Source: a virus
DNA length: 33,235 nt
IMG/VR virus record: IMGVR_UViG_3300036770_004485
Reading direction: 5' to 3' (one strand)
Shown: positions 6,001-26,068 of the stretch, piece by piece
Numbering within the stretch: the stretch's first letter is position 1
How the letters are laid out: the number at the start of each line of letters is the position of its first letter
The notes under the pieces: model-generated
What the model was told of the DNA's origin: nothing
What the model saw: only the letters and a program-made list of their open reading frames with translations
Database searches by the model: none
Translations under genes and position numbers: made by a program

Positions 6001-9000
6001 GAATTTTTTTCTATCAAAAACAATTCTTCTATTGAAATCATTATATTGAACAAAAACTCTCTGCTCTTTATTTGGTTTAGAAATAATTGCAATTTGATCT
6101 TTGAAAGTTAATCCATGATTTTCGCTTGTAGTCAATATTGATTCATACACTGCTGCGTTGGCAGTAATAGAGTTTGTTTGTAGTGTTAAACTATGTGTTA
6201 CTCCACTACCAACAGAGACAAACAATAGTTTTGTTGATGTTGAACCTAAACCAACATAAGTTCCAGTAGAACCTATACCAATTTTAGTTGTGCTTAGTCC
6301 AACCAAATTTTCTGATTCTTTTATTGCATAAACTTTTGATTGATTTTCAAGATCAAATTCATTTATACCATTCCAAACTCTAAGGGACGATCCCCCTCCA
6401 TTTGAATAAACTAACTCATCTCCAGTTTCAAAACTATGATTGGAGATCAAAATAGAACCCAAAGGAACAATTTTTGAAGTAAATGCAATTCCAGATTCAT
6501 ATTGATTATTTTGTAGAAGATTTGGAGGAGCAATGTTATTCAATGGATGATATGAAATCGTTGTTCCAATTCCAACACTTGTTGCAGTCCCAAGAGCAAC
6601 AACTTCTGAAGGATTAAAATATCTTTGTAGTTTTGGTGGATTTGAAGTAAAAGTTGAAAAACCTACTGGAAAACTGAAAGTACTTTGATATTCTAGTACA
6701 AGAGTTCTAAAACTATATGAAGTCCCTACAGTGCCATCATAATTTCTTTGAACTCGAACTAATTGATTTTGCGGATCAATGTTTAGAACTTTTAATTTTT
6801 CTAAGTTTTCTGCACTAAGTCCAATTCCAATAATAGTATTTTCTCTAAAATAGAGAGGGTCGTATGAACCAATCAAACTAATTGTAGTTGTTAAACCAGT
6901 TGTAGATGGAGATTCAAGATTATCCCCCAAATACCATGATCTTTGAGGATTACTAATTATTTTATTGCCATTTAAGTTTGAATAACTATGTGTTGATAAA
7001 CCAGATATTATAATACTGTTTTTATTTTCAAAATGATGTGGTGATGTGCAATAACCTATTGCTAAACCACCGCTTACATATAATTCAAGATTTTCTGTTG
7101 ATATAGTTGATGATGCCAAAGATACAATATTTTTTCCACGAACAGATTTAATTTGAGCAGTGGTTGATCTTCCATAAAGAGGAGAACCCTCAATAACTAA
7201 ACGATCTCCTGGTTTATAACTAGATCCAGCAGATACTACATTAAATCCGGTAACAGATCCTTTTGAAGTTGATGTTATTTCCGTAACTTGCCTTGGATCT
7301 GCAGTGGAATCATTAATGTATTCACTGTATCCGAAATTTCTACTTGTTTTTGTTGGTCGGGTATTTCTAAAAAGTAAGTCATAGTTATAATCAACCTGAT
7401 TGATATTTCTGTCAAAGTTAAATGAATCTGGTTTTCCTTTGAAAGAATCCCCGATTACATAAGGAAACTGTGGTAATTTATAATTTTTGAATGCTCCAGA
7501 TCCTTCAGATGGTCCAGAATTTATCGTGGTATAATACGCATATGTGCCAAAAGGATAATCTGGAGTTTTTGCAAATCTTCCATTTTTTTCGTCTAAATCA
7601 CCATTACCAGCGAATACATAATCTTCAATAAAATACCCGTTTGAGAATCCAGGAGGTCTTTCAGAACTAGGAATTAGGTCATATCCAGATCTAATTTCAC
7701 GAACAGATCCTCCTCTAGGAGTATCATATGCAAATGGACCATAAATTGGATGTCCATCAAAAGCCCAACCAATAATTGGAGAGTGATATTCTGAAGATAC
7801 CTCAACATTGTTGATTTTTCTTAAATCAACAGAATCTGCTCCATATTTTGTTTCTCCATCTTCACTCTTTGCATATATCAGTTCTCTAAGTGCTCTAGGA
7901 GCAGTCATTGCAGCATAACTACCGCGAGAATACTGATTTTTACTCTCTGTTAGGATTCCATCATCAACACTAAGATTATTTTTATATCTCTCAAAATTAT
8001 TAATAGTCCATTTACGAATTTTTGCTCTTGCCTTTGCTCCTTGACCAGTTGGAATAACATCGATAAAGGTAGTGAAAGTAGTAAATCCACTACCTCCATC
8101 ATTAATTTGTATCGATGTAATAGATCCATTGTGAACAATTGGAGTCAATGATGCATTTGAACCAGAACCAGAAATTTTCAACTCTGGTTGTGCTACATAT
8201 CCAGATCCACCATTGATAACAAAAACTTCTTTAATTTGTCCACTTGATATGATTGGTTTTAGTTGAGCTCCAGAACCACTATCAAATAAAATTAGAGGTT
8301 GTCTTTCAAAATTAATTACATCGGAACACCCATATCCGACTCCAGTTTTTTCTAGGTTTATTTTTTGAACATACCCTCTAAATTTTGGTTTTACTGTTGG
8401 TTGGAATATTAAATTATTTGTGGTTTCAATTCCAACATTACCACTAATTTGAACAACAATTGGAGGATAGTTGAATATGTGAGTTCCTCCAACTCCGACA
8501 TTCTTGAAATCAACAAAAATTTGATTTTTATAGTTATAATCAGAAATTGTTGTTCCAATTCCTGCTGCAGATAGTTTGAAATTACTATCATCTAGTTTAT
8601 AGACATAATATTGCTGATCGGTGGTCAACCCAGAAATCGACACACCTTCATATTTGTATTCTATTAGATCTCCACTGGAAAAACCATGATTATTATAAGT
8701 AATTTGATTTTTGCTAGAACTAATACCAGATGAAGAAATTCTAATAGGATTATTAGTGTAACCAAATCCTTTATCAGATATTGTTATTGATGATAATACA
8801 TTTTTTAATTCAACGGTTGTAAAGTATTGATTTCCTTGTCCAAAATCAGTGATATTAATTGTGTTTATTCCAGATAAAGCATCAGATTTTCTGGTGTGTA
8901 ATTTTATCTGACTCAATCCTATTGTTGACACATAATATACTGAATTATCTACTAAGTTAGCATCTCTGATAACAGAAGATTGATGCGTCCCAATTCCGAT

Positions 9001-11586: not shown

Positions 11587-11587
11587 T

Positions 11588-13489
11588 TTATCTCGTTATC
11601 GATCCATTAGTAAAACTTGATGAAACTGAGTAGTTATATCCAGACTTGTCAGAACCTGATGAAATAGTATCTGGAACAACATTTATAACACTCTTACTTA
11701 TATCTAGTTGCAAAAATAAATCCTGTAATCCAATCACATCATTTGATTCTGGCACTGCTTGAATTTCAATTATTGAGATATCAGAATCAATGATTGAAGT
11801 GTTTACAATTCTAATTGGAGATAATAAAATCTCTCCCTTTTCATAATTTACGGTTCCAACATTTCTTCTGACAATAGATCCTTCTGTATCAGAAACTTTT
11901 CTGATTAAATTAATAATACCCGTTTTCAAATCAGAATTTGGAACATCTGTTAGAAAAACTTCGCCAGTGTAACCGTCTAAGAAAAATCCCGTGGTTTTTA
12001 TATTGTAACCCTGTACGTTGACATGAAATTTATTTCCAAAGCAAATTTCATAATCTGCAAATGAATTCAAAACAGGTCTCAAGTTACGACGCATTACAAC
12101 TTTAGTAATGTTCGAAGTAATAGCAGAACTTGTATTATCAATTATACTCAACAATTTACTATATTTGAGTCTTGAACCAAATTTATTAAGATCTGTAGAA
12201 TCTGCATATGTTTGTAAAGACTCTGAGACTTGAGTTTTGATGTAACTAGCACCTTCAGATTTGTTAGTGTTGTAATAAACATTTGAATTGATTTCTATGA
12301 ATAAGTAGTTCAAATCAATAATCTTTGGCATTATGCCAGCAACAGAGTAACTTTTCAGTTTTTGCTCTATATCAAATTTAATAAAATTTGATAGATAATT
12401 GCCATTCTTTGGTTTGACGCCAATAAAAACTCTTCCGTATTGTGGAGGAGATAAAGTTTCTCCACCAAAAACAACGGATGATTCTGTTTCTGGAAAAACT
12501 TTTTTAATTATGGATTCATAATCAGTCGCAGTTACTGCTCTATTTTGAGCAGCGTAGTTCTTAGGAGCATAATTGCGAATCGAATCCACAGATTCAATCT
12601 CACCGCCACCTGTTGACTCTTGAGTAAGAGAAATATCTGATACGCCAGTGGTTACGACTCGATCATTATTGTCAACTAATCGACCAGCAAAAGTGAAGTT
12701 TCTAATTCCATTCGCTTGAGATCCATTAGTTATGATATACGTTGCTGTAATATAGTTATTATTTTCTAGTCTATTTCCAAAAACACCATCTCCGAAAAGA
12801 ATTTCATATCTTTCATCGGCAACTTCTTGTAATAGATAGATTTTGGAATCTGGTCCAACATCGATGATGCTATCTACAAATTCATATTTTACTGAAGAAA
12901 TTGCATAATCAAAATCTTTTACTTTTACAATCAATGTAGAAGTATCAACATTTGAATTTGGTATGATAAATTTTTGATTCAGTTGAGATGTATTCACCGT
13001 AAAATTATTTTCTAAGTAAGTGCCTTCATAAATTTCAATATCATTGAAGAATGCAAGGTTATCAATGATATTAACAGTGATATCTTCGGGAATGCAGAAC
13101 GTATAGTTAGACCCTCCAAAACTGTCTGAGACCGCCACCAGACCCGCTCTAAGGGTCAATGTGTTAGGATTGGTGGTAAGAGACGATGTATCAACAAAAA
13201 AACTTACAGTTGCTTTTGATGCTTTTTTTGAAGATGGTAAATATCCAATATTTCTTGCAAGTGCTACAATGTTTTCTCTAAGAGTGGCACTATCGATAAA
13301 TCCTTCATTTGCCAACATATTGGCATTGTATGAAGAAATATATGTGTTATATGCTAAAACGTCAATTAGAACAGAGAAATTTGATCCCTCAAAATCAAAA
13401 TCTGTGAAATTAGAATTTGAACGCAGATAATCTTTTATCTGCGTTTTTATTTGATCAAAGTCTAGGTCTGAAAACTTTGTAAGTGGCAT
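11588..13489 (-). CDS. gp6: T4-like baseplate wedge subunit gp6
   Basis: 633 aa; LDFDQIK...FTDFDFEGSN.SVLIDVLAYNTY, FIDSATLRENIV, FGDGVFG and QNRAVTATDY motifs. Confidence 0.95.
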   Translation of the reverse strand: MPLTKFSDLDFDQIKTQIKDYLRSNSNFTDFDFEGSNFSVLIDVLAYNTYISSYNANMLANEGFIDSATLRENIVALARNIGYLPSSKKASKATVSFFVDTSSLTTNPNTLTLRAGLVAVSDSFGGSNYTFCIPEDITVNIIDNLAFFNDIEIYEGTYLENNFTVNTSQLNQKFIIPNSNVDTSTLIVKVKDFDYAISSVKYEFVDSIIDVGPDSKIYLLQEVADERYEILFGDGVFGNRLENNNYITATYIITNGSQANGIRNFTFAGRLVDNNDRVVTTGVSDISLTQESTGGGEIESVDSIRNYAPKNYAAQNRAVTATDYESIIKKVFPETESSVVFGGETLSPPQYGRVFIGVKPKNGNYLSNFIKFDIEQKLKSYSVAGIMPKIIDLNYLFIEINSNVYYNTNKSEGASYIKTQVSESLQTYADSTDLNKFGSRLKYSKLLSIIDNTSSAITSNITKVVMRRNLRPVLNSFADYEICFGNKFHVNVQGYNIKTTGFFLDGYTGEVFLTDVPNSDLKTGIINLIRKVSDTEGSIVRRNVGTVNYEKGEILLSPIRIVNTSIIDSDISIIEIQAVPESNDVIGLQDLFLQLDISKSVINVVPDTISSGSDKSGYNYSVSSSFTNGSITR

Positions 13490-13887
13490 TATCTTGTTGC
13501 CTGAAGAATGAAGTCTATTGCTTGTGGATTATTTGGTTGCCCAACAATGTAGTACGAAATCAAAACATTATATGCATTGTCATCGTATACTGGAGTCACT
13601 TCTACCGTATTCAAATATACTCTTGGTTCATAATTGTTGATCGTTGTTTCAATTTCCGATCTTATGACACTTGCAGTACCAATATCTAGAAGTTCAAATA
13701 AACTTCCACTAATTCTTGAACCAATATTAGGTTCAAAGAATCTTTCACCCAAGTTTGTGAGTACTAAATTACGAATCGAACGAGAAATTGCAGTCTCGTT
13801 CGTCAAAACAGTGACATCATTTGTAATAGGATGCCTCTGGAATGCTAGAGAAATGTCTTTGAATGACTTTGAAATAGCTTGAGGCAC
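13489..13887 (-). CDS. gp25: Baseplate wedge subunit gp25 (GPW/gp25 family)
   Basis: 132 aa, GTG start; FKDISL.F..HP.T.D, AI.RSIRNLVLT..GERFF.P..GS and I.NYEPRV motifs; TAATG overlap with gp6. Confidence 0.95.
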   Translation of the reverse strand: MPQAISKSFKDISLAFQRHPITNDVTVLTNETAISRSIRNLVLTNLGERFFEPNIGSRISGSLFELLDIGTASVIRSEIETTINNYEPRVYLNTVEVTPVYDDNAYNVLISYYIVGQPNNPQAIDFILQATR

Positions 13888-16623: not shown

Positions 16624-16652
16624 ATTATAACACCTCACAGGTCAACTGTCAA
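16624..16652 (-). promoter_or_regulatory. Consensus sigma70-type promoter
   Basis: TTGACA-17-TATAAT with extended TG; followed by ~225 nt lacking a convincing ORF. Confidence 0.85.
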
Positions 16653-16868: not shown

Positions 16869-16923
16869 ATTATATAACAGGTCTGGTGCATCTGTCAAGG
16901 TGTGACTGTCAGGGAACTGGTAC
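16869..16923 (-). promoter_or_regulatory. sigma70-type promoter with degenerate upstream palindrome
   Basis: GTACCAGTTCCCTGACAGTCAC then TTGACA-18-TATAAT. Confidence 0.75.
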
Positions 16924-16988: not shown

Positions 16989-17157
16989 CACAGGGTATAA
17001 AACAAGATCACAACAGTTTTCCACAGGGTATAACACAGATTTCACACATCTTTCTGACAGGTATAACAACAGTTTTCCACAGATTTACAACACTTTTCCA
17101 CAGATTGTGGAAAACGTTATAACAAATACATTTACATTATTAATTACATTTTTAATC
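16989..17157. repeat. Iterated units with four TTTTCCACA DnaA-type boxes and an AT-rich tract (candidate origin)
   Basis: TTTTCCACA at 17017-17025, 17073-17081 and 17094-17102, inverted copy at 17106-17114; three (C/G)ACAG(G)GTATAA units at ~33-bp period; AT-rich 17113-17157. Confidence 0.75.
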
Positions 17158-17346
17158 ATTTTTTACCTCTTTTTGAGTATAATTCACGTCATTCCAGTGC
17201 CTAACAGCATTAGAAACGATTGCAATGTTGGTAATCAGATAGGAGGAAAGAATCACGGTTCTGATGATAGCAACAATGTCTGCCTCTCTATCACATTTAC
17301 CTTTCTTTTCACCTAGAGCGTAACACCATAGTCTCCACAGATTCAT
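17152..17346 (-). CDS. Small probable membrane protein
   Basis: 64 aa; W..ALGEK...D.EAD..A.IRT followed by a hydrophobic stretch. Confidence 0.75.
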   Translation of the reverse strand: MNLWRLWCYALGEKKGKCDREADIVAIIRTVILSSYLITNIAIVSNAVRHWNDVNYTQKEVKND

Positions 17347-17564
17347 TCGTTACGTTGTCGAATAGAGGACAAAGGTGTGATCCGATTGTAGTCATCTGGG
17401 TACACGAGTAGACAACATCCACCGACACTATTCTCTGATTCACGAATACACACAGTAACATAAGATTCGCAAACAAATTGAATCTTTCCATAGAATGTAT
17501 CACCATTCTCTTTATCATACCTGACCTCTAATCCTTCATGAAAAGAGGAGTTTTTCAAGGGCAT
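17343..17564 (-). CDS. Hypothetical protein
   Basis: Likely start MPLKNSSFHEG; ATGA overlap with the next gene. Confidence 0.65.
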   Translation of the reverse strand: MPLKNSSFHEGLEVRYDKENGDTFYGKIQFVCESYVTVCIRESENSVGGCCLLVYPDDYNRITPLSSIRQRNE

Positions 17565-17847
17565 TTTGTCGGATTGGCATTGCTGAGAACGGACTGGTTT
17601 GGGTAACAACTTTTCCAGGGGTTTTGGGGTTGATTGGGGCATGAACTTCTCCTGTCTTTTTGTTTACGAATCCCCAGATTGTCTGAGTTGGTTTTCCTAA
17701 ATTGTAATCAAACTTTCGCTTGCAAACTAACCAAATAGCAATGAACTTTGCATTGAAGTCTTGTTCTGAATAGGAGTAATCTTGAGGAAGTTCAGTAACA
17801 TTCTTCCGAAGCAAGGCGTAAGCGGAAGAGTGGTTTTTCAAGGTCAT
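17536..17847 (-). CDS. Conserved cyanophage-type hypothetical protein
   Basis: IWL...FDYNLGKP..TIWGF...HAPIN motif; start uncertain. Confidence 0.7.
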   Translation of the reverse strand: MTLKNHSSAYALLRKNVTELPQDYSYSEQDFNAKFIAIWLVCKRKFDYNLGKPTQTIWGFVNKKTGEVHAPINPKTPGKVVTQTSPFSAMPIRQNALEKLLFS

Positions 17848-17932
17848 CAGTATAATTCTCCTCGATACATTCAATAATAGCATCCAGGTGCGATTTTGTC
17901 AATTCAAGTGTAAACAAAGTTTCGGTGTCCAT
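17792..17932 (-). CDS. Small acidic hypothetical protein (46 aa), not in ORF track
   Basis: Manual translation MDTETLFTLELTKSHLDAIIECIEENYTDDLEKPLFRLRLASEECY. Confidence 0.6.
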   Translation of the reverse strand: MDTETLFTLELTKSHLDAIIECIEENYTDDLEKPLFRLRLASEECY

Positions 17933-17937
17933 TTTAA

Positions 17938-18186
17938 TCAGTTCAGTTCACGAAGTTCGTTTTCAATACAGTTGAAGACTTCCTCATAGAGGTAATCATA
18001 ATCGTCTTCCACATTGTTGAGAACTTGCTCTGCAATCTCACGGGATTGTGTCACTTGTTCTCCATCTTCATTCATCACGAATACATCGGGATTGGTGAAG
18101 ATAAATGCAGCAACAGGAGCATCTGCACCCTGTTCGGCAATCATACGCTCGACAGATTCTTTGAGTTGTTGTAAAGTTCGTGCCAT
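17938..18186 (-). CDS. Hypothetical protein
   Basis: 82-aa ORF in an operon-like array. Confidence 0.8.
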   Translation of the reverse strand: MARTLQQLKESVERMIAEQGADAPVAAFIFTNPDVFVMNEDGEQVTQSREIAEQVLNNVEDDYDYLYEEVFNCIENELRELN

Positions 18187-18188
18187 GA

Positions 18189-18341
18189 TCAGTTCAGTTT
18201 CTCAAAGTTACGGACAACAATTTCACAGAGTTCATCTAAAACTTCATCGTTGAAGAAAATCTTTTCATCATCAACAAATGAAGCATAAGTGAGAATGTCC
18301 TGCTGGATTTGTTCGCGGACAGAAAGAAGTTGAGTGTTCAT
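18189..18341 (-). CDS. Small acidic hypothetical protein (50 aa), not in ORF track
   Basis: Manual translation MNTQLLSVREQIQQDILTYASF...LCEIVVRNFEKLN. Confidence 0.75.
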   Translation of the reverse strand: MNTQLLSVREQIQQDILTYASFVDDEKIFFNDEVLDELCEIVVRNFEKLN

Positions 18342-18370
18342 GATTCAGTAGTTAGAAACGGTTTGCAAAA

Positions 18371-18685
18371 TCATGCCAGACGCATACCTGAGAAGAACGG
18401 AATCGGAGCACCTGAGTAGTTAACAAACCACTCAAAGTTCTTGGCAAAGACTCGCTCACCTTCCATTCCGAAGGCACTCAGAATAGCATTGAGGCGAGAC
18501 TTTGTGGTGTGAGATTGCCAACCACCATCAAACAATTCGATCCAGGTTTCACCAATGCGAGCAATCAAATTGCCATGCAGATAGACATCAGAAACATTCG
18601 TGCAAGAGATAACTTCAGTGTTGGCAAGTTTGAAGTCTTGATTGTTTTTGATGGCGGCGATCATTTGGGATTCGATCTTACGCAT
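18371..18685 (-). CDS. Conserved phage early hypothetical protein
   Basis: 104 aa; VYLHGNLIA, GGWQS.TTKSRLNA motifs; first gene behind repeat unit R1. Confidence 0.85.
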   Translation of the reverse strand: MRKIESQMIAAIKNNQDFKLANTEVISCTNVSDVYLHGNLIARIGETWIELFDGGWQSHTTKSRLNAILSAFGMEGERVFAKNFEWFVNYSGAPIPFFSGMRLA

Positions 18686-18697
18686 GAGGTCCGTTTC

Positions 18698-18770
18698 GTT
18701 TGGTATGCTTTAGTATTGCACGGATTCGGGGATTCCACAAGGGGTCTTGTGCCACTTTGTCAACTGGCAC
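18698..18770 (-). promoter_or_regulatory. Repeated early-promoter unit R1
   Basis: GTGCCAGTTGACAAAGTGGCAC-8-TTGTGG-14-TGC-AATACT-AAAGCATACCAAAC. Confidence 0.85.
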
Positions 18771-18774
18771 ACCC

Positions 18775-18990
18775 TCAGTCTTCGTAGTCATTTTCCATGA
18801 CATAATCGCAATCCCACCCATACTGGTATGCCACATCTTTCTCGATCATGTTTAGATTTTGTTCGGTCATCTTCTCATTCAGAAGATCACCATTCTCATC
18901 GCAAAGTTCGCTCATCCAATAATCACAAAGCGTCTGATTTGTCTGTTCCAGATTGTTGATTGCGGTCTCAAATGCGGATTGAATGTTCAT
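18775..18990 (-). CDS. Hypothetical protein
   Basis: 71-aa acidic ORF. Confidence 0.75.
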   Translation of the reverse strand: MNIQSAFETAINNLEQTNQTLCDYWMSELCDENGDLLNEKMTEQNLNMIEKDVAYQYGWDCDYVMENDYED

Positions 18991-18999
18991 GATTAAGAT

Positions 19000-19230
19000 T
19001 CAGAAGTGTGCTTCGGAGGTATCAAGTTGATTGCTATACTTTGCGATGGCATCATAACACTTTTTCTTCATACCTTCATCACCATCGGCAACATAACCAT
19101 TCAGAAACTCAATAGCATAACGGATGCGAAGTTCAGGATGAGAGAGAATACGTTGACGCTCATTGTATGCTCGATTGTATGCAAACATTTCACGATCTTC
19201 AATGCTGACGGTGTGAAACTTGCGATTCAT
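19000..19230 (-). CDS. Hypothetical protein
   Basis: 76 aa; first gene behind R2, AAGGA upstream. Confidence 0.8.
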   Translation of the reverse strand: MNRKFHTVSIEDREMFAYNRAYNERQRILSHPELRIRYAIEFLNGYVADGDEGMKKKCYDAIAKYSNQLDTSEAHF

Positions 19231-19241
19231 TCAGTTCCTTT

Positions 19242-19313
19242 GTTTGGTATGCTTTAGTATTGCACAAAAAAGGTGCCAGTGGGGAGAATGGTGGACACTT
19301 TCCCAACTGGCAC
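19242..19313 (-). promoter_or_regulatory. Repeated early-promoter unit R2
   Basis: GTGCCAGTTGGGAAAGTGTCCAC...TGCAATACTAAAGCATACCAAAC; no TTG at the -35 position. Confidence 0.85.
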
Positions 19314-19321
19314 ATTGTTAC

Positions 19322-19468
19322 TCAGAACTCGATAGGTTGCAGAGTAGGATAACTCACCTCCGAAACATTCTCACTCACACTATCAGCAGCAAGTGCATCC
19401 AAGATAGAAAGAATCTCGTTGCCATTGTTGCCTTGTGCCAGAAGAGAAATCAGAACGGATTTGGACAT
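19322..19468 (-). CDS. Small hypothetical protein (48 aa)
   Basis: Likely start MSKSVLISLLAQGNNGNEILSILD. Confidence 0.7.
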   Translation of the reverse strand: MSKSVLISLLAQGNNGNEILSILDALAADSVSENVSEVSYPTLQPIEF

Positions 19469-19533
19469 GATGTAGTTAGAAACAAAAATGGAGAGTTTGA
19501 GTGTCTTTAGGGCGCATCTCATTCCCATGTCAT

Positions 19534-19788
19534 TCAGAAATCAAACACGTCAGAGTTAATCTGAATCACGTTCACTTTCGGATCGGCAAACTTAACTCCG
19601 TCCTTAGTTTCCTTCACACCGTAGACATTGTAAAGGCAACTTACCAGAGATTCGTAATCACCACACTCTTGTGCCAGATGATACAGACTCTCATCATTGT
19701 TGATCCAGAGAGCAACATTCCAGGTCTCATAATTCTCCCAACCGTTATAGGAGATGTCGAGAGCATTGCGTTGGAAAGTGGCAGTCAT
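19534..19788 (-). CDS. Conserved phage hypothetical protein
   Basis: YNGW.NYETWNVALWI.NDE.LY motif; first gene behind R3. Confidence 0.85.
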   Translation of the reverse strand: MTATFQRNALDISYNGWENYETWNVALWINNDESLYHLAQECGDYESLVSCLYNVYGVKETKDGVKFADPKVNVIQINSDVFDF

Positions 19789-19800
19789 TTGAGTCCTTTT

Positions 19801-19872
19801 GTTTGGTATGCTTTAGTATTGCACACTAGACGGTCGTTTGGGGGGTTTGGTGGACAGTTTGGTAACTGTCAC
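19801..19872 (-). promoter_or_regulatory. Repeated early-promoter unit R3
   Basis: GTGACAGTTACCAAACTGTCCAC...TGCAATACTAAAGCATACCAAAC. Confidence 0.85.
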
Positions 19873-20023
19873 ACGCTGCTGCGGTTTGTTGCGGATTGTT
19901 GCAAAGTTTAATCATTTGCTGGTCCATCTTTTCCCACATTTGTGCATCTCTCTGTGCCAACCAAATGTTAAACCCGACCATTGAAGAAATGCCGACCATA
20001 ATAGCAATCGCGTACTTTTTCAT
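19826..20023 (-). CDS. Small protein with N-terminal hydrophobic anchor
   Basis: Likely start MKKYAIAIMVGISSMVGFNIWL; C-terminus runs into R3. Confidence 0.65.
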   Translation of the reverse strand: MKKYAIAIMVGISSMVGFNIWLAQRDAQMWEKMDQQMIKLCNNPQQTAAACDSYQTVHQTPQTTV

Positions 20024-20025
20024 GA

Positions 20026-20169
20026 TTAGAATGATGTGAACTCTTCCAGATAATACCTGACACTCACACCAAGTTTCTGACACTCTGAGATGATCAATTC
20101 CAATTTGTCATTGTCTTTGATGTCACACTCTTTGATCAAAAAGTGTAAGTCTTTCTCAATTTTGTTCAT
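20026..20169 (-). CDS. Small hypothetical protein (47 aa), not in ORF track
   Basis: Manual translation MNKIEKDLHFLIKECDIKDNDKLELIISECQKLGVSVRYYLEEFTSF. Confidence 0.7.
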   Translation of the reverse strand: MNKIEKDLHFLIKECDIKDNDKLELIISECQKLGVSVRYYLEEFTSF

Positions 20170-20353
20170 AGGTTTCTGAAACGGAAGGCGAAACATCTTC
20201 GATCTGTTGTGTCGGAACTTTTACGCGAATGTTATAAGGAGAATTGAAAAAACGCCGAAAAGCAGTAACAAGAATGAGAAGCGTCGAAGTAACACCAACC
20301 AAACCAAGGAAGGTGATAGCATCGCCAGAGAAAGTGTAGGTATCAGGTGTCAT
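20156..20353 (-). CDS. Small probable membrane protein
   Basis: 65 aa with one hydrophobic segment followed by RRFFNSPYN. Confidence 0.75.
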   Translation of the reverse strand: MTPDTYTFSGDAITFLGLVGVTSTLLILVTAFRRFFNSPYNIRVKVPTQQIEDVSPSVSETYEQN

Positions 20354-20356
20354 GAT

Positions 20357-20518
20357 TCAAACGGAGGGAGTTACTTCGATTTCTTTGATGTTGAGACCAC
20401 AAAGTTGATTGTAGACGCGATTGAGTATAAGATCGCAGGCACGAATTGCTTTGGATTTCTCATACCAAATGGTCACACATCCGTCGTAGGTTTCAACTTG
20501 AACGCGGTAGTTTTTCAT
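20357..20518 (-). CDS. Small hypothetical protein (53 aa), not in ORF track
   Basis: Manual translation MKNYRVQVETYDGCVTIWYEKSKAIRACDLILNRVYNQLCGLNIKEIEVTPSV; first gene behind R4. Confidence 0.8.
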   Translation of the reverse strand: MKNYRVQVETYDGCVTIWYEKSKAIRACDLILNRVYNQLCGLNIKEIEVTPSV

Positions 20519-20526
20519 CTCGTTTT

Positions 20527-20600
20527 GTTTGGTATGCTTTAGTATTGCACGGATTCAGGCAAATCGCAACCGCTTGTGTGCCACTTCTCAAACTGGACTC
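20527..20600 (-). promoter_or_regulatory. Repeated early-promoter unit R4
   Basis: GAGTCCAGTTTGAGAAGTGGCAC-8-TTGCGA-TTTGCCTGAATCCG-TGCAATACTAAAGCATACCAAAC. Confidence 0.85.
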
Positions 20601-20728
20601 GCATACTTGAAAGCATCAAGAATCTTCTGGTAATCTCGCTGTTCGACTTCATCGAACTCGTATGCTTGTTGCTCCAGGCAATACACGAGCAGTTCAATTT
20701 GATCGTTGGACAGTTCAATTTGTAGCAT
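20588..20728 (-). CDS. Small hypothetical protein (46 aa), not in ORF track
   Basis: Manual translation MLQIELSNDQIELLVYCLEQQAYEFDEVEQRDYQKILDAFKYASPV; stop lies inside the R4 palindrome. Confidence 0.7.
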   Translation of the reverse strand: MLQIELSNDQIELLVYCLEQQAYEFDEVEQRDYQKILDAFKYASPV

Positions 20729-20909
20729 CAGTCTTCAGGTAATTTTGTAAGGTTTTGAGGATACGTTGCATGGCAGAGCGAGAATAACCTGTAGCAAAAG
20801 GATAACCTTGCCCGTCAGTATCAGGTGCAGTATAACACACATTGACTGCATCTTTCAAGTCTCTGACGATCCATTTTAGATCGTCAGAGTTAACTTTTGT
20901 GGTTGACAT
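20715..20909 (-). CDS. Hypothetical protein
   Basis: 64 aa; GYPFATGYSRSAM motif; abuts the upstream stop. Confidence 0.8.
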   Translation of the reverse strand: MSTTKVNSDDLKWIVRDLKDAVNVCYTAPDTDGQGYPFATGYSRSAMQRILKTLQNYLKTDATN

Positions 20910-21176
20910 TTAGCAGGCACCCCACATAGGATTTGCAAGTTGTGCATCAGTGTGAAAATCAGTTACCTGATAACCCATGCCAATTCTTTCCTCACACTCA
21001 CGCTCAAACTCACGTTTGGTGATTACTTTCTTGCTCATGGTATCAGTACCTTTGAAAGAAAGAATCTTGAGCATGTAGTTGGGAGAGACATCAGCATCAA
21101 TCGCAACCTTGACGGGATAATAGTCAACAACCATGGAAGGTTTGCCGTCAATTTGAGAGATTGCTGAGAGTTGCAT
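20910..21176 (-). CDS. Hypothetical protein
   Basis: Start moved to MQLSAISQ, directly behind R5. Confidence 0.8.
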   Translation of the reverse strand: MQLSAISQIDGKPSMVVDYYPVKVAIDADVSPNYMLKILSFKGTDTMSKKVITKREFERECEERIGMGYQVTDFHTDAQLANPMWGAC

Positions 21177-21186
21177 CGGTTCCGTT

Positions 21187-21259
21187 GTTTGGTATGCTTT
21201 AGTATTGCACGGATTCAGGCAAAGCACAAGGGGTCTTGTGCCAGTTTCTGAACTGTCAC
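21187..21259 (-). promoter_or_regulatory. Repeated early-promoter unit R5
   Basis: GTGACAGTTCAGAAACTGGCAC-AAGACCCC-TTGTGC-TTTGCCTGAATCCG-TGCAATACTAAAGCATACCAAAC. Confidence 0.85.
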
Positions 21260-21663
21260 ACTGCCAGGGCACCGCTGGGAATCTCTACACCTTCTAGGTA
21301 AGATTCGTGCCATTCGCATGTATCATAGCACAACCATCCTTCCTCTTGAGTATAAACGTATGCAAACTCTTCGGCACCTTGAGTCAGATACTCGTGCAGG
21401 TTAGCATCAAGGCGAGGAGGACAATCATCACCTCGTTGAGAATAATAGAGCGCACCTTGGGCAACAGTTTCATTATTAAATCCAGCATTTGTCCATGCCG
21501 AACTCATGTCGCCACCATCAATCAGTTCAGCAACTTTATCACGATCGTTGTAATGTGTGCGGAGAATACGACCCAACCACTCAGGATAACCATCCCAATG
21601 ATGATAAACTGACAGAATGTTTCCATTCTTGAGTTCAAGACCAATGCGAGAGCGTGTTGCCAT
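21256..21663 (-). CDS. Conserved phage hypothetical protein (YxHWDGYP family)
   Basis: MATRSRIG...SVYHHWDGYP...LIDGGDMS...EEFAYVY; start moved to behind R6. Confidence 0.85.
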   Translation of the reverse strand: MATRSRIGLELKNGNILSVYHHWDGYPEWLGRILRTHYNDRDKVAELIDGGDMSSAWTNAGFNNETVAQGALYYSQRGDDCPPRLDANLHEYLTQGAEEFAYVYTQEEGWLCYDTCEWHESYLEGVEIPSGALAV

Positions 21664-21673
21664 TTGTTCGTTT

Positions 21674-21746
21674 GTTTGGTATGCTTTAGTATTGCATGAA
21701 ATCAACGATCACGCAACTGGTAGTGTGCCAGTTCCTGAACTGACAC
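21674..21746 (-). promoter_or_regulatory. Repeated early-promoter unit R6
   Basis: GTGTCAGTTCAGGAACTGGCAC-8-TTGCGT-14-TGCAATACTAAAGCATACCAAAC. Confidence 0.85.
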
Positions 21747-21918
21747 AATTTGTCTTTGATAATTGGTCAATGAATTGCCTTGCCGTTGTTATACTGTTGA
21801 ACCATCTTGCCTGCTTGCCATCAACCAGAGCAACATACTTGTTTCCATGAGGCATAGCAATGTAATTGCCACATTTGCTCACATAAGGAGGAGCAACATC
21901 AAAGATTTGACTATTCAT
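21709..21918 (-). CDS. Hypothetical protein
   Basis: 69 aa; ATGA overlap with the upstream gene; C-terminus encoded by R6. Confidence 0.7.
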   Translation of the reverse strand: MNSQIFDVAPPYVSKCGNYIAMPHGNKYVALVDGKQARWFNSITTARQFIDQLSKTNCVSSGTGTLPVA

Positions 21919-22151
21919 CGGGCAATCACATCCAGAGACTCCAATAGCATCATTGCAAGTTCCATCTGATTCTCATCATCAATCACAGGAATGTTTGTTT
22001 GCACAAACTCACTTGCAAGTTGAGCAAAAAGTTCAGTCGTTCGCTCATCTGAGAATACAGCAGTGGCAAAATCACTCTTGAAACCGTCACGCAACAGACG
22101 CAGAGAACGTGTTACTGTCAGTTCTTTAATTTCTTGTTGATAGTCAGTCAT
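21915..22151 (-). CDS. Hypothetical protein
   Basis: Likely start MTDYQQEIKEL. Confidence 0.75.
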   Translation of the reverse strand: MTDYQQEIKELTVTRSLRLLRDGFKSDFATAVFSDERTTELFAQLASEFVQTNIPVIDDENQMELAMMLLESLDVIAR

Positions 22152-22159
22152 TTGTGTAA

Positions 22160-22525
22160 TCACTTCATGTAAAGATAAGCGCCTGCCCAATCAGCGTGGG
22201 CAAACAGATACTCACGATCACGAATCAAACGCAGATCGTAACGAACGCCCTTGGCAGGTTGCTTCCAAGATGCAGACTTGTAGACTTCACCAGTCTTCTT
22301 GTCAACAAAAGCGTGAACAGAACGTTGACCACTGGAGTCAATCATGATGATCTTGTGATACTTCTTACCCGACACAAAGGTATAATCATAACCTTCAGGA
22401 GCAGCATCACGCAGAGCATCACAGAACTGCCACACATACTTGATGACATTCAGTTGAAGAGTGTTGCGAGCATCTTGCTGAGCGCAATAGTCGCTGAAGT
22501 CCTTGGTGAGAAAAGCGGAAGTCAC
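22160..22525 (-). CDS. Conserved T4-like/cyanophage hypothetical protein
   Basis: GKKYHKI...SVHAFVDKKTGEVYKSASWK.PAKGVRY...DWAG.YLY; probable GTG start behind R7. Confidence 0.85.
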   Translation of the reverse strand: MTSAFLTKDFSDYCAQQDARNTLQLNVIKYVWQFCDALRDAAPEGYDYTFVSGKKYHKIIMIDSSGQRSVHAFVDKKTGEVYKSASWKQPAKGVRYDLRLIRDREYLFAHADWAGAYLYMK

Positions 22526-22538
22526 TTGACGTTTCTTT

Positions 22539-22611
22539 GTCTGGTATGCTTTAGTATTGCACGGATTCGGGGATTCCACAAGGAGTCTTGTGCCAGTTCA
22601 TGCACTGGCAC
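22539..22611 (-). promoter_or_regulatory. Repeated early-promoter unit R7
   Basis: GTGCCAGTGCATGAACTGGCAC-AAGACTCC-TTGTGG-AATCCCCGAATCCG-TGCAATACTAAAGCATACCAGAC. Confidence 0.85.
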
Positions 22612-23506
22612 ATTGAAACCGACCGCTGTTGAAGTTATGATAAGCAAAGACCTCACGATTCACCAGTTTGAACATACCGAACGCATTGGTGAGAACATAA
22701 CCCTCAGCATCAATACGATTGCCATTGATGTAAGCGGCAGGACCATCATTGCGGCACAGAAACAAGCAGTCATCTTTGATTGACTTCACCAACGACCACA
22801 AACGGATCAGGTTAGGATCACAATCAAAGTCATTTACGCTCTCTGTGGTAATCTGTTCACCAGCACGAATGAGAGCGTTGATTTGTTGTTTGATTTTTGC
22901 TGCCTCCTTGTTAGAGACAAAATTAACCATGGTAGAGATTTGACGAGCAAATTGTACGATGCCAGCAACATCCTCAAACGATTCTTGACCGTACTGAATG
23001 TATGCTTCAGGTTTCACAAACTTGACATAGGGAGTATCCGTGATGGTAAAGTTCATCGGATAAGCAACTGCATCACGCAAATCTTTCTCTGCGATGTAGA
23101 CAGTATGAGGAGCAATGATGATCTCCTCGTTCACTACTTCAGGAAACTTGTAAGTGATTGTGTTTGGTGTGTATTCGTCGGATCCACCGAACCCGATAAA
23201 ATCACCTTGCAAAATACCAGCAGTGCGAGGCAAGTAATCCAAGCAAGCATGAAGGATTTGTGCGACATTTCCTTGGTGGTTTGCATCAATGTCCTCATGC
23301 GATTCGTTGATCTTAATTTTTACTTTGTTGAACACACTTTTGGTGCCAACGAAGAAGTTTCCAGTTGCAGGATTCGTGCCCCAAACAATCGCAGGAGCAC
23401 CATCAATTTTAACCGAAAGATTGCCAGGATTTACGAACCAATCCAGAACTGACAGATCGCCAGTCAGGATAGAATCTTCGGGGTGTTCAAGATGTGTGTT
23501 CTTCAT
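22598..23506 (-). CDS. Ligase-like nucleotidyltransferase-fold protein (DUF6267-like)
   Basis: 302 aa; HLEHPED, SVKIDGAPA (KxDG motif I), GTKSVFNK, QGDF, EGYV (motif IV) and KLVNR (motif V). Confidence 0.75.
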   Translation of the reverse strand: MKNTHLEHPEDSILTGDLSVLDWFVNPGNLSVKIDGAPAIVWGTNPATGNFFVGTKSVFNKVKIKINESHEDIDANHQGNVAQILHACLDYLPRTAGILQGDFIGFGGSDEYTPNTITYKFPEVVNEEIIIAPHTVYIAEKDLRDAVAYPMNFTITDTPYVKFVKPEAYIQYGQESFEDVAGIVQFARQISTMVNFVSNKEAAKIKQQINALIRAGEQITTESVNDFDCDPNLIRLWSLVKSIKDDCLFLCRNDGPAAYINGNRIDAEGYVLTNAFGMFKLVNREVFAYHNFNSGRFQCASA

Positions 23507-23571
23507 GCTTTTAGTATTGCACGAAATCGTGCCCAGGTCAAGGGGGTGTGTGCCAGTTCCTCAACTGTCCT
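23507..23571 (-). promoter_or_regulatory. Repeated early-promoter unit R8 (leaderless configuration)
   Basis: AGGACAGTTGAGGAACTGGCAC-8-TTGACC-14-TGC-AATACT-AAAAGC-ATG. Confidence 0.8.
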
Positions 23572-23640
23572 TTACACTTTCAAAAAAATCGTTGATTTTA
23601 TTTGGGCGGATGACCTATGACACCCTTCAGGTAGAATTGC

Positions 23641-23665
23641 AAAAAAATCAGGGTTTGACCCCTGA
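23641..23665 (-). terminator. Rho-independent terminator after the helicase
   Basis: TCAGGG-GTCAAA-CCCTGA followed by T7; preceded by a second hairpin TGAGTCTC-ACCC-GAGACTCA (23674-23693). Confidence 0.75.
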
Positions 23666-23690
23666 CCAGCACTTGAGTCTCGGGTGAGAC

Positions 23691-24905
23691 TCACCGACGC
23701 ACAACACTTATGGCAGGTTCTCCTTGTTGGAAGATAGTGTCAACAACTGCCTGAACTTTCTTGGCAGTGCTGATACCAACGTTGGAGAACACGGGAATGT
23801 GAACCAGACCGAACGATTTGGTATAATTGGCAAGGTCACCAGGTTTGATAGAACCATCGCGCAGACCTTTGGCATCATCCTTATGCAAACGGATCACCCG
23901 TCCGATAGTCTGAGCGATGCCAATGTAGTCCATGGCACGCATCATCACGCAGGCAGAAAGACCAGAGACGTTGATACCTTCAGACAGAATACTGTGGTGC
24001 ATGATGACAAACTTCTTGCCATCTTCCTTGCCCCAAGCATTGAGAGTGTCAAAGAATACCTCACGATTAACCTTCTTGCCGTTGACAAATGCACCATGCT
24101 TCGCAGTAATCCACATCAGAGAATAACCACGACGATCCAACTCATAGGCAAAATCAGTTTCAGACACCAGACGCATGATGTCTTTGGTCTTGGTAGCACA
24201 AATCAGCACCTTTTCCATGCTTTCGCTGTTGTCAATGACGTTGAGCAGATTGTTGCGATCACGACCTGCAATGTCGCCGTTGATAGTCTCAGGCAGTTTG
24301 GCAGTGACAACTTTAGGAGGGATAATGTATCCGCCTTCAATGAGTTCGGGAGCAGAAACTTTCTCAATCACCTGACCATAAACGTCAGGATTGTTCATCC
24401 CAGGTTTAGAGGGAGTGAGAGAATGTTTGGGAGTTGCAGTAAAGAAGTAGCAACGCTTAGCAATAGCAGACATAGCAGAAGTTGCAACGTAGAAGTTACG
24501 CTGAACGCTATTATGTGCCTCATCAAAATAAATCGTAGCAACTGGAATCCCAGCATCAACAACACGCTCAAGCGAATTGTAGGTGGTGAAGATGAGTCGC
24601 TTCTTGTCAGAGTTAGCAAGCACCCAGTTGTAAATCTCTTTGGGTTTGGTGGTAGAATAGTGATGCGTTTCGCCACTGTGGACGTGCATCACTTCTGCAT
24701 CAAGGATAAACTCAAGAAACTCAGAAGAGAGTTGCTCAGCAAGCAAGATGCGCGGTGCAACCACTACAATAGTGCCAGATTCTTGACGCTGAGCATCAAA
24801 AATCATGCAAGCAGTCTTGCCACCGCCAGTAGGAACAATCGCCTGACCAATGCTATGCTGAAGCATAGCATCAAGAATACGCTGTTGGTGAGGACGAAGT
24901 TGCAT
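23691..24905 (-). CDS. Superfamily 2 DEAH helicase (ResIII/UvsW-like core)
   Basis: LRPHQQ, PTGGGKT, YFDEAH, TATP, LSEGIN and QTIGRVIR motifs; start moved to MQLRPHQ because 24928-24956 is a promoter. Confidence 0.92.
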   Translation of the reverse strand: MQLRPHQQRILDAMLQHSIGQAIVPTGGGKTACMIFDAQRQESGTIVVVAPRILLAEQLSSEFLEFILDAEVMHVHSGETHHYSTTKPKEIYNWVLANSDKKRLIFTTYNSLERVVDAGIPVATIYFDEAHNSVQRNFYVATSAMSAIAKRCYFFTATPKHSLTPSKPGMNNPDVYGQVIEKVSAPELIEGGYIIPPKVVTAKLPETINGDIAGRDRNNLLNVIDNSESMEKVLICATKTKDIMRLVSETDFAYELDRRGYSLMWITAKHGAFVNGKKVNREVFFDTLNAWGKEDGKKFVIMHHSILSEGINVSGLSACVMMRAMDYIGIAQTIGRVIRLHKDDAKGLRDGSIKPGDLANYTKSFGLVHIPVFSNVGISTAKKVQAVVDTIFQQGEPAISVVRR

Positions 24906-24927
24906 GAATTGAATTGATTGTCTCTTT

Positions 24928-24984
24928 ACAATAGCATCAAAAAAGGGGTCTGTCAAGACCCCTGTGCCAGTTCAGAAATTGTCT
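24928..24984 (-). promoter_or_regulatory. Promoter variant R9 fused with a terminator
   Basis: AACTGGCAC half site, then GGGGTC-TTGACA-GACCCC-T6, then TGC-TATTGT at 17-bp spacing. Confidence 0.8.
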
Positions 24985-25991
24985 GGTCTCTTGAATCGTT
25001 TATTAACTTTTGCTGCCTCTTTGATCGTTGCATCTCCAATGCAATGATTTGACTTGAGACCTTCTCTTTGGCAGAAAATCTTGTATCGGTCAAGAATACT
25101 GTGGAAGATGTATTTGTGAGCATTAGCATCAATATATCCTTTACAGAGAGTAGTTTGACTCTCCATTCTTGGCAGAACGTTGATAAGGAAATACTTGAAG
25201 TTTTCCTCTCTTCCATTCTCCAAAACATCATCAATAAACTGTGCCAGTAAGCAGCAGGTCCTGAACATTGGACCAGTGACATAAGTATCAACTGCTCGTG
25301 ATCCGCCAAAAGAATTGTGGAACATTTGTGCCCACATCCAGTTGCCAGCTGCAAGTCTACGCTGTGATTCTGGATCTTCTGCGGGGTAATCTACGGTAAG
25401 AGCCAAATAGAATTGGTTGAAAGATTTCAATTCAATTCCATCTTCTCCATCGTATCCAAAACCATCAATGTGAAGGTGATAACCAGTCAGGATTCTCTCT
25501 ACCCACAGAGATGTTTGATCCTTAAATACAACACCTGCACGAATCTCATCAATCTTACTGAGTTTTTTACGTTGTGTATTCAGTGCAAAAAAGATTTCTG
25601 CTTCAATTTCTTCACACTCTTGAAGTGTTGAATCTTCATTGTGCTCATAGATCATTGCAGGAAAAGATACAGAATTATCCTTAACTCCCGACAGATAGTG
25701 AAGAACTGCTTTATGCTGCCCATCAATCAACCAATCTCCACTGTTATTTCCCAACCCTTCGGGACGACGTGCAACAACAGCAGGAATCAGCAACTTTAGG
25801 TCTAGTTTCTTATATTTTTTAATACAACTGGTGCTCAACATTCTCTGATACAGAGATGATACCTTTAGTTCACCGCTATTTGAATAATTTTCAAATGTGA
25901 GAGGTTTACCCTCAAATCCTGGTATCACAGACTTCATCAAATCTTTCTTTGATGAAAGTTCTTTGATTGTTTTATAGTTAGATGTAGACAT
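24972..25991 (-). CDS. ParB/Srx-like DGQH-motif protein
   Basis: 339 aa; YQR, LIDGQHK and EAEIFFALNTQRKKLS motifs as in DGQHR/DndB/ParB-like domains. Confidence 0.7.
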   Translation of the reverse strand: MSTSNYKTIKELSSKKDLMKSVIPGFEGKPLTFENYSNSGELKVSSLYQRMLSTSCIKKYKKLDLKLLIPAVVARRPEGLGNNSGDWLIDGQHKAVLHYLSGVKDNSVSFPAMIYEHNEDSTLQECEEIEAEIFFALNTQRKKLSKIDEIRAGVVFKDQTSLWVERILTGYHLHIDGFGYDGEDGIELKSFNQFYLALTVDYPAEDPESQRRLAAGNWMWAQMFHNSFGGSRAVDTYVTGPMFRTCCLLAQFIDDVLENGREENFKYFLINVLPRMESQTTLCKGYIDANAHKYIFHSILDRYKIFCQREGLKSNHCIGDATIKEAAKVNKRFKRPDNF

Positions 25992-26039: not shown

Positions 26040-26068
26040 ATTATAACAGATGAAAGTTTATCTGTCAA
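26040..26068 (-). promoter_or_regulatory. Consensus sigma70-type promoter
   Basis: TTGACA-17-TATAAT with extended TG, upstream of the DGQH gene. Confidence 0.85.

Follow-up and report, generated by a model that had tools for sequence, protein, structure and literature searches.

What can a short repeated element do between groups of small genes that are otherwise unrelated? The question is raised by a stretch of 33,235 nucleotides (nt) of viral DNA, IMG/VR record IMGVR_UViG_3300036770_004485 (hereafter the window), in which eight copies of one unit head successive groups of small genes between positions 18,698 and 23,571. In our judgement the units are probably composite intergenic joints that form a promoter/stem-loop cassette array, of the type known as early-promoter/stem-loop elements (PeSLs), in the genome of a T4-like cyanomyovirus. 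Host RNA polymerase would start a new transcript at every joint, each group of one to four small genes would be expressed on its own and probably early, and the hairpin of the joint would punctuate the transcript arriving from upstream, be it as an attenuator, a stabiliser of the 3' end or a protein site. The joints are also the only sequence common to the otherwise unrelated gene groups (60-85 nt alike, with an identical core of 24 nt), and are therefore sites where homologous recombination can join unrelated genes intact; it would be the phage's own recombination that makes such joins without breaking genes.

The repeats stand far above chance. A 23-nt motif, allowing at most one mismatch, occurs seven times, always on the minus strand, at 18698, 19242, 19801, 20527, 21187, 21674 and 22539, where none is expected by chance (100 shuffles of the window). 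An eighth copy, at about 23507, is shortened and its core directly abuts an ATG. Numbered R1 to R8, the units start 487-968 nt apart, in agreement with the eight direct repeats spaced about 490-970 bp of a first-pass annotation of this DNA. That annotation also held the motif to be identical in six copies, mismatched in R7 and shortened in R8; this stands for the 23 nt, but the core, which is 24 nt long with the preceding base, is exact in five copies and carries one mismatch each in R6 and R7. The start codon lies 8-13 nt past the core, as the earlier limit of about 13 nt had it. Upstream of the core is a palindrome, TGTGnCAGTT-N4-AAsTGGCACA, which is 24 nt long (10+4+10) and imperfect rather than the 22 bp originally given, with a left arm that is degenerate in R4 and R8; matches to it are found at 10 places in the window against 0.15 expected, two of them outside the array, at 24965 and 32711. 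The promoter part begins 7 nt past the palindrome with TTGnnn (-35), continues with a 17-nt spacer and TGC plus AATACT (-10), and then reads AAAGC; the predicted start is the A of CATACC, about 6 nt past the -10, and the leader is 20-25 nt long, A/C-rich and has little or no Shine-Dalgarno sequence. The full arrangement TTGnnn-17-TGn-AATACT is present in six of the eight units, R2 and R3 having the extended -10 only. These two form a subtype, B, with the common core, a different upstream half and no TTG -35; in R2 the upstream half is a long GC hairpin followed by T6, the canonical shape of a terminator. The joints, in window coordinates, are:

18698..18771, minus strand: R1, with palindrome at 18748-18771, -35 TTGTGG at 18735-18740, TGC plus -10 AATACT at 18712-18720 and core at 18698-18721; the ATG of gene 1a is at 18685; predicted hairpin -19.6 kcal/mol, z -2.2.
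19242..19314, minus strand: R2, subtype B, with the long hairpin and T6 abutting an exact core; predicted hairpin -23.5 kcal/mol, z -5.7.
19801..19873, minus strand: R3, subtype B, with a 7-bp hairpin, a compensated arm variant and an exact core.
20527..20600, minus strand: R4, with degenerate left arm, conserved right arm, TTGCGA-17-TGC-AATACT and an exact core; hairpin not stable, z +0.7.
21187..21260, minus strand: R5, in which the left palindrome arm provides the TGA stop of gene 6a, with TTGTGC-17-AATACT and an exact core.
21674..21748, minus strand: R6, with palindrome, TTGCGT-17-AATACT and a core mismatch at the first base; the open reading frame (ORF) of gene 7c runs through the hairpin and stops between -35 and -10.
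22539..22612, minus strand: R7, with palindrome, TTGTGG-17-AATACT and one core mismatch (A to G); z -3.4.
23507..23570, minus strand: R8, with degenerate left arm, TTGACC-17-TGC-AATACT, then 6 nt and the ATG of a 302-aa gene.
24928..24983, minus strand: a ninth, diverged joint before the helicase gene, with the right palindrome arm, a GC hairpin and T6; its promoter is TTGACA-17-TATTGT, and the TTGACA -35 lies within the hairpin loop.

What virus carries this array? The window comes from an uncultured T4-like cyanomyovirus, because it encodes T4-type baseplate wedge genes (11588-13887) and because its nucleotide similarity among phage genomes is only to Synechococcus and Prochlorococcus myoviruses, each covering at most 5% of the query. 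Also encoded are a ferredoxin-like gene, a helicase and a DNA methyltransferase, and at the far end of the window the tail end only of a baseplate/tail-fibre connector gene. Next to the baseplate wedge genes lies an ORF of 3862 aa or more, open-ended in the window (1-11586, minus strand). Pfam matches it only through a YHYH domain (residues 1263-1356), and it probably encodes a giant structural protein that cyanomyoviruses have in association with the baseplate. This giant ORF had prompted the idea of an N4-like phage with promoters for its own RNA polymerase, which was dropped in view of its T4-type baseplate neighbours and of phage matches that are all cyanomyoviruses. The array sits inside a run of small genes of about 19 kb within the baseplate module, and all genes in the array part of the window are on the minus strand. 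G+C content (GC) is 0.43-0.46 in the array (18000-25000) against 0.29-0.37 in the structural genes (1-13000). A cassette island with GC above that of the rest of the phage is likewise seen in a complete relative (G004, 130-135 kb); foreign origin of the island or GC-biased repair at a recombination hot spot are possible sources of the rise.

Does each joint carry a promoter? Relatives were gathered through the 302-aa protein as an anchor (80 loci) and through the exact core (7 loci), 87 loci altogether, and an iterated nhmmer profile collected 332 related units, 213 of them unique. Outside the palindrome, what hardly varies among the unique units is the -35 TTG, the TG just ahead of the -10, and the second and sixth bases of the -10 hexamer, whereas the spacer varies freely; a set of 115 unique related units likewise has its invariant positions where a sigma-70-type promoter would have them. 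Upstream of the orthologous 302-aa gene the -10 differs by lineage (AATACT, CATACT, TACAAT, TATCTT, TATAGT), A2 and T6 being kept throughout. Over the related units in general, the distance from -10 to ATG falls into two classes, 6 nt (20 units) and 22-27 nt (75 units). Such a pattern has the signature of a primary-sigma (sigma-70-type) promoter giving a leaderless or short-leader transcript; this anatomy and its conservation, with the stem-loop ahead, favour the PeSL-like promoter/stem-loop of the first-pass annotation. The 24 conserved nt had also suggested a promoter for a T7-type single-subunit RNA polymerase, a candidate we rejected, the -35/17/-10 pattern and its variation among relatives fitting the sigma-70 type; a sigma-54 promoter (TGGCAC-N5-TTGC) was rejected on spacing, which is 8 nt and not 5. 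The T4 late-promoter motif TATAAATA has no copy anywhere in the window and is therefore uninformative.

The 302-aa gene, which encodes a DUF6267 protein, deserves a separate word together with its upstream signal (window 23506-23541, minus strand). Nearly all of the roughly 80 relatives (loci L008-L087) place the -10, whichever hexamer they use, exactly 6 nt before the ATG, and because of this distance the mRNA is predicted to be leaderless. The signals at this position also vary in kind. Among relatives with variant upstream signals (loci L008-L011, L018, L021, L022, L025, L027, L035, L077, L079), some replace the palindrome/TTG unit by GGGCCC or CTCACC, 3-4 nt, AAAGTG, then TATAGT or CAGTAGT and the ATG; other relatives have at the same position a C-rich spacer without a -35 before TACAAT. 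Different signals at one orthologous position mean that promoter classes have been swapped at a single gene. The signal GGGCCC-N3-AAAGTGT, which precedes the 302-aa gene in some relatives, was not found in the window.

Why would such promoters carry a palindrome? The window has three perfect TTGACA-17/18-TATAAT promoters on the minus strand, all without one (26040-26068, 16869-16898 and 16624-16652). Downstream of the last of these, at 16652, no clear ORF start is seen within about 60 nt; this promoter might drive a small RNA or an ORF of 36 aa. Because perfect promoters without the palindrome exist elsewhere on the strand, the repeated units are a distinct and formally weaker promoter class. 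It is possible, if on balance unlikely, that this class is factor-dependent, the palindrome being the DNA site of a dimeric protein of phage or host, be it an activator, a repressor or an anti-terminator, by which the island would be controlled, an explanation compatible with the one we prefer. In 152 unique units, drawn from phages that differ by about 25% in their proteins, the half-sites TGTGnCA and TGGCACA never change, the variable positions do not keep pairing, the distance from palindrome to -35 is fixed at 7 nt, and the units occur in one island only, the perfect consensus promoters lying elsewhere. Yet no candidate binding protein was identified, the half-site centres are 17 bp apart, which is unusual for helix-turn-helix dimers, and the left arm is degenerate in R4 and R8 despite an intact promoter part. 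A CRP-type site (TGTGA-N6-TCACA) was considered and rejected because the spacing does not fit.

The palindrome could instead act in RNA. As a rule it includes the stop codon of the preceding gene or comes straight after it: the upstream ORF ends inside it in 75 of 105 units, its stop codon being at left-arm position 3 or in the loop. The predicted hairpin is stable in R1, R2, R3 and R7 (z -2.2 to -5.7), less so in R5 and R6. In the 152 unique full copies the four outermost pairs and pair 6/19 are constant and therefore say nothing about pairing. The palindrome is therefore best described as conserved as sequence, with an RNA hairpin as a possibility. No Rfam family and no tRNA matches the element. 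The hairpin might be a ribonuclease target or barrier that sets the 3' ends of cassette mRNAs without acting as a terminator, which is again compatible with our preferred explanation: most hairpins have no U-tract, a ribosome terminating at a stop codon in the arm or loop would cover the hairpin, and the stem sequence is invariant. With neither covariation nor a match in Rfam, this putative processing or stability element strikes us as improbable when taken by itself.

A number of these observations count against the reading of the joints as promoter plus punctuating hairpin, and they should be taken together. The promoter, the leaderless start and the early timing are all deduced from the letters of the DNA, and the -10 AATACT and -35 TTGTGG of the units match the consensus less well than the three perfect promoters do, so that the units may be a separate, factor-dependent class. 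Pair 5/20 is C-G in 88 of 152 copies and A.G in 55 (the A gives the upstream gene its TGA stop), 98 of the 152 have G.G at pair 8/17, and covariation is absent, pairing at the variable positions being no higher than expected from independent columns (152 unique copies). R4 and R8, with their degenerate left arms, have no stable hairpin, and a U-tract follows the stem in R2 and the helicase joint only. Because R4 and R8 do not fold and only these two joints have the U-tract, a terminator role is doubtful for most units. We nevertheless retain the promoter/stem-loop joint as the most probable reading of the array.

The joint is a family-wide feature and not private to the window, because homologous units exist in a cultured phage and in many further records. 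In ACG-2014f, a marine Synechococcus phage isolated on WH7803 (Kyanoviridae, Atlauavirus), they lie between small genes upstream of the helicase gene and carry the stop codon within the left arm, with TGC-TATACT as -10 and CATACCAAA as leader; nucleotide search returned 365 such places in 108 phage records, every one of them a cyanophage. In two complete related genomes, occurrences of palindrome plus TTG lie together within a few kb, and in a complete 211-kb relative full-length profile matches occur only at 132.7-136.7 kb, where GC climbs to 0.53 from a genome-wide figure of about 0.37. All leadered copies of the lineage have the same 24-nt core, both in the window (18698-22562) and in seven other contigs (L001-L007), although their genes are only 70-85% identical; in the wider family, cores resemble each other only a little more within a genome (0.60) than between genomes (0.52). 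This identity could reflect tight constraint on the start region and leader, or gene conversion in the recent past.

Do genes change partners at the joints? A comparison of relatives by tblastn of window genes gives 78 distinct layouts in the 87 loci, an order far from fixed. Where both genes of a window junction are present, adjacency is kept in 15 of 55 cases at junctions with a unit and in 41 of 53 at junctions without; likewise, gene-family pairs stay adjacent in a mean fraction of 0.35 of co-occurring loci with a unit against 0.59 at tight junctions (Mann-Whitney p ~5e-6, not a true probability since the loci are related). One contig with the exact core (G003) has the order 6a, helicase, 302-aa gene, 7, 2a, 5a, 1a, 3b, the window having 7, 6, 5, 4, 3, 2, 1. 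Its homology to 2a and 5a begins at the 24-nt core and the upstream half of the unit is of another type; the units before these two genes are chimeric.

Close pairs, defined by flanks at least 93% identical, allowed 12 breaks to be read by eye, and 16 of the 24 break ends fall within units. In one pair (L038/L047) a 947-nt cassette is present or absent between two hairpins; in a second (L031/L041) two units have collapsed to one chimeric unit; and in L017/L044, as also in L031/L041, ORFs are replaced from the ATG up to the next unit with both units conserved. By a rule-based count of 35 non-redundant block ends among close relatives, long joints hold 18 in 13% of the sequence (3.8-fold enrichment), tight stop/start junctions 9 in 5.6% (4.6-fold) and the inside of genes 8 in 77% (a depletion). 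Because block ends are enriched in long joints and depleted inside genes, the joints are seams, and the gene gain and loss at the repeats that had been foreseen is indeed found in relatives, as loss, gain, replacement and reordering. The isolate genomes of ACG-2014f differ by an indel of a unit together with an ORF; since isolates show unit indels, metagenome mis-assembly is excluded as the sole source of the pattern. One isolate, ACG-2014f NC_026927, has an HNH endonuclease gene under a promoter of its own and, after it, a complete hairpin-promoter unit (L088, 6014-6409), both of which are missing in two others (L090 and L091); homing-endonuclease insertions may carry or copy units.

Are the exchanges caused by the repeats or merely tolerated there? 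The chimeric units, and the fact that units are the only homology between unrelated cassettes, lead us to infer that repeat homology drives them. Part of the break data pulls the other way: several block ends in the comparison with G003 lie at gene ends inside cassettes, and per nucleotide the tight junctions are as enriched for breaks as the joints, an equality expected from selection against broken genes alone. The units could then be plain transcription punctuation, ordinary promoter and terminator signals between genes that general or illegitimate recombination rearranges and selection filters, and here too several indels of close pairs and of ACG-2014f isolates have one or both ends at stop/start overlaps. 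Against this, the unit-to-unit events of L038/L047 and L031/L041 leave a single chimeric unit, ORFs are replaced between two conserved units, the homology of G003 starts exactly at the shared core, and long joints break about three times as often as tight junctions when counted per junction. We regard plain punctuation as unlikely and favour repeat-driven exchange at the joints; the many breaks at tight gene-gene junctions inside cassettes do, however, speak against treating the cassettes as fixed modules.

Could a dedicated recombinase be at work? Imperfect palindromes with fixed mismatches at the 3' end of gene groups, with a stop codon in the joint, recall the attC sites of integrons, and the palindromes might be attC-like sites of a site-specific system. 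However, a search of two complete and two partial related genomes for a PF00589 tyrosine recombinase gave no match, while all of the 14 control genomes did; nor was one found among the window ORFs searched against PHROGs. The break points are scattered over the unit (loop, just past the hairpin, spacer, ATG), and every cassette has its own promoter-like element. An integron-like system is largely refuted by these results and we give it hardly any credence; the proposal that the array works without an integrase agrees with this negative result in the two complete relatives.

What, then, do the joints separate? The cassette genes are real genes, and most belong to PHROG or Pfam families common to other cyanophages. 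One to four small genes per interval is right as a general count, with two departures: a single 302-aa gene in the R8 interval, and at least eight genes without a unit after R1. From the helicase gene downwards along the strand, the cassettes are:

23691..24905, minus strand: helicase gene (phrog_16), directly upstream of the array.
22598..23506, minus strand: cassette 8, one 302-aa gene (DUF6267, phrog_455).
21709..22525, minus strand: cassette 7, genes 7a (DUF7717, phrog_818; start probably the GTG at 22525), 7b (phrog_3298) and 7c.
21256..21663, minus strand: cassette 6, gene 6a (135 aa, phrog_1987).
20588..21176, minus strand: cassette 5, genes 5a (phrog_500), 5b and 5c.
19826..20518, minus strand: cassette 4, genes 4a (phrog_12489), 4b (phrog_14199), 4c and 4d (phrog_1355).
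19322..19788, minus strand: cassette 3, genes 3a (DUF7249, phrog_871) and 3b.
18775..19230, minus strand: cassette 2, genes 2a (phrog_15469) and 2b.
17152..18685, minus strand: cassette 1 and its tail, gene 1a (Kyano_Gp96, phrog_554) and then about seven small genes without a further unit; a consensus TTGACA-17-TATTAT promoter lies in the tail at 17874-17902.

All gene families of the cassettes are DUFs or PHROGs without known function (DUF6267, DUF7717, DUF7249, Kyano_Gp96 and several unnamed PHROGs), and the 302-aa protein had no match in a PDB sequence search. The suggestion that these are host-takeover or anti-defence genes found no evidence here and is neither supported nor excluded. Genes 7a (DUF7717, 22160-22525) and 1e (17536-17883), both on the minus strand, cluster into one protein family. 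They probably represent paralogues that have diverged and belong to separate cassettes, even if 1e matches Pfam only weakly (E 0.003).

A bolder view would make the element a dedicated cassette joint across the Kyanoviridae, its invariant palindrome read by a phage or host protein in transcription, RNA processing or recombination, and the array an integrase-free functional analogue of the integron, maintained in a single GC-rich island. Each joint would then supply the stop codon or codons, a private promoter and a ribosome-loading leader, and any ORF placed between two joints would be expressed at once. We offer this tentatively and think it unlikely in so strong a form. The stakes are nevertheless wide: T4-like cyanophages rank among the most abundant viruses of lakes and oceans, and their variable genes are for the most part small ones without known function. 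A defined joint for expression and exchange would explain the turnover of this accessory gene pool. Palindrome plus promoter would also give a sequence handle on the island and its cassettes in metagenomes, and for work in picocyanobacteria the joints would be a source of compact native promoters and leaders, and of a likely leaderless start.

Such an arrangement is not without precedent. PeSLs were defined on RB49/phi1 and then recognised in T4/PST and KVP40/nt-1 as well (PMC2839356, PMC4122927); each is an early promoter of sigma-70-like type next to a stem-loop. Such elements are dense in hyperplastic regions, lie where indels and replacements end, and give rise to mini-circles (PMC2839356, PMC4122927), terminator activity and mini-circles having been demonstrated experimentally for those of RB49/phi1 (PMC2839356, PMC4122927). 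Neither of these papers mentions cyanophages (PMC2839356, PMC4122927). A study of the cyanophage S-PM2 looked for PeSLs and reported a low density only (PMC4503421), and beyond it the literature we searched yielded no paper linking PeSLs with cyanophages. The units described here resemble PeSLs in having a predicted stem-loop directly upstream of a predicted sigma-70-like promoter, in being numerous in a hyperplastic region among small genes of unknown function, and in marking the differences between related phages with no integrase involved; of the PeSL definition, the four features tested here (promoter, stem-loop, hyperplastic region, indel ends in the repeats) are all present in the units, the first two as predictions. 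The units also have traits of their own: (i), the stem is one fixed sequence across cyanomyovirus genera, where PeSL stems are a G-run and a C-run, and it usually holds the stop codon of the upstream gene; (ii), the units lack an AT-rich UP-like tract, and their conservation extends into the leader (24 nt identical); (iii), they are confined to one GC-rich island.

Two other systems invite comparison. Like integron attC arrays, the array sets unrelated small genes apart by imperfect palindromes, and its cassettes are gained, lost and reordered; unlike them, it has a putative promoter of its own for each cassette and break points at no fixed position, and no integrase was found. T4 has many near-identical, strong early promoters for host polymerase; they are found over large parts of the genome, have an extended consensus of their own, and each stands before a short group of small non-essential genes. 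In sequence the units resemble them as near-identical promoters at the head of small-gene groups, but they are local to one island and come with a conserved palindrome. What is new here is the PeSL-type joint in the cyanophage branch, with its fixed stop-codon hairpin; the concept itself has been published for relatives of T4 among the coliphages and vibriophages.

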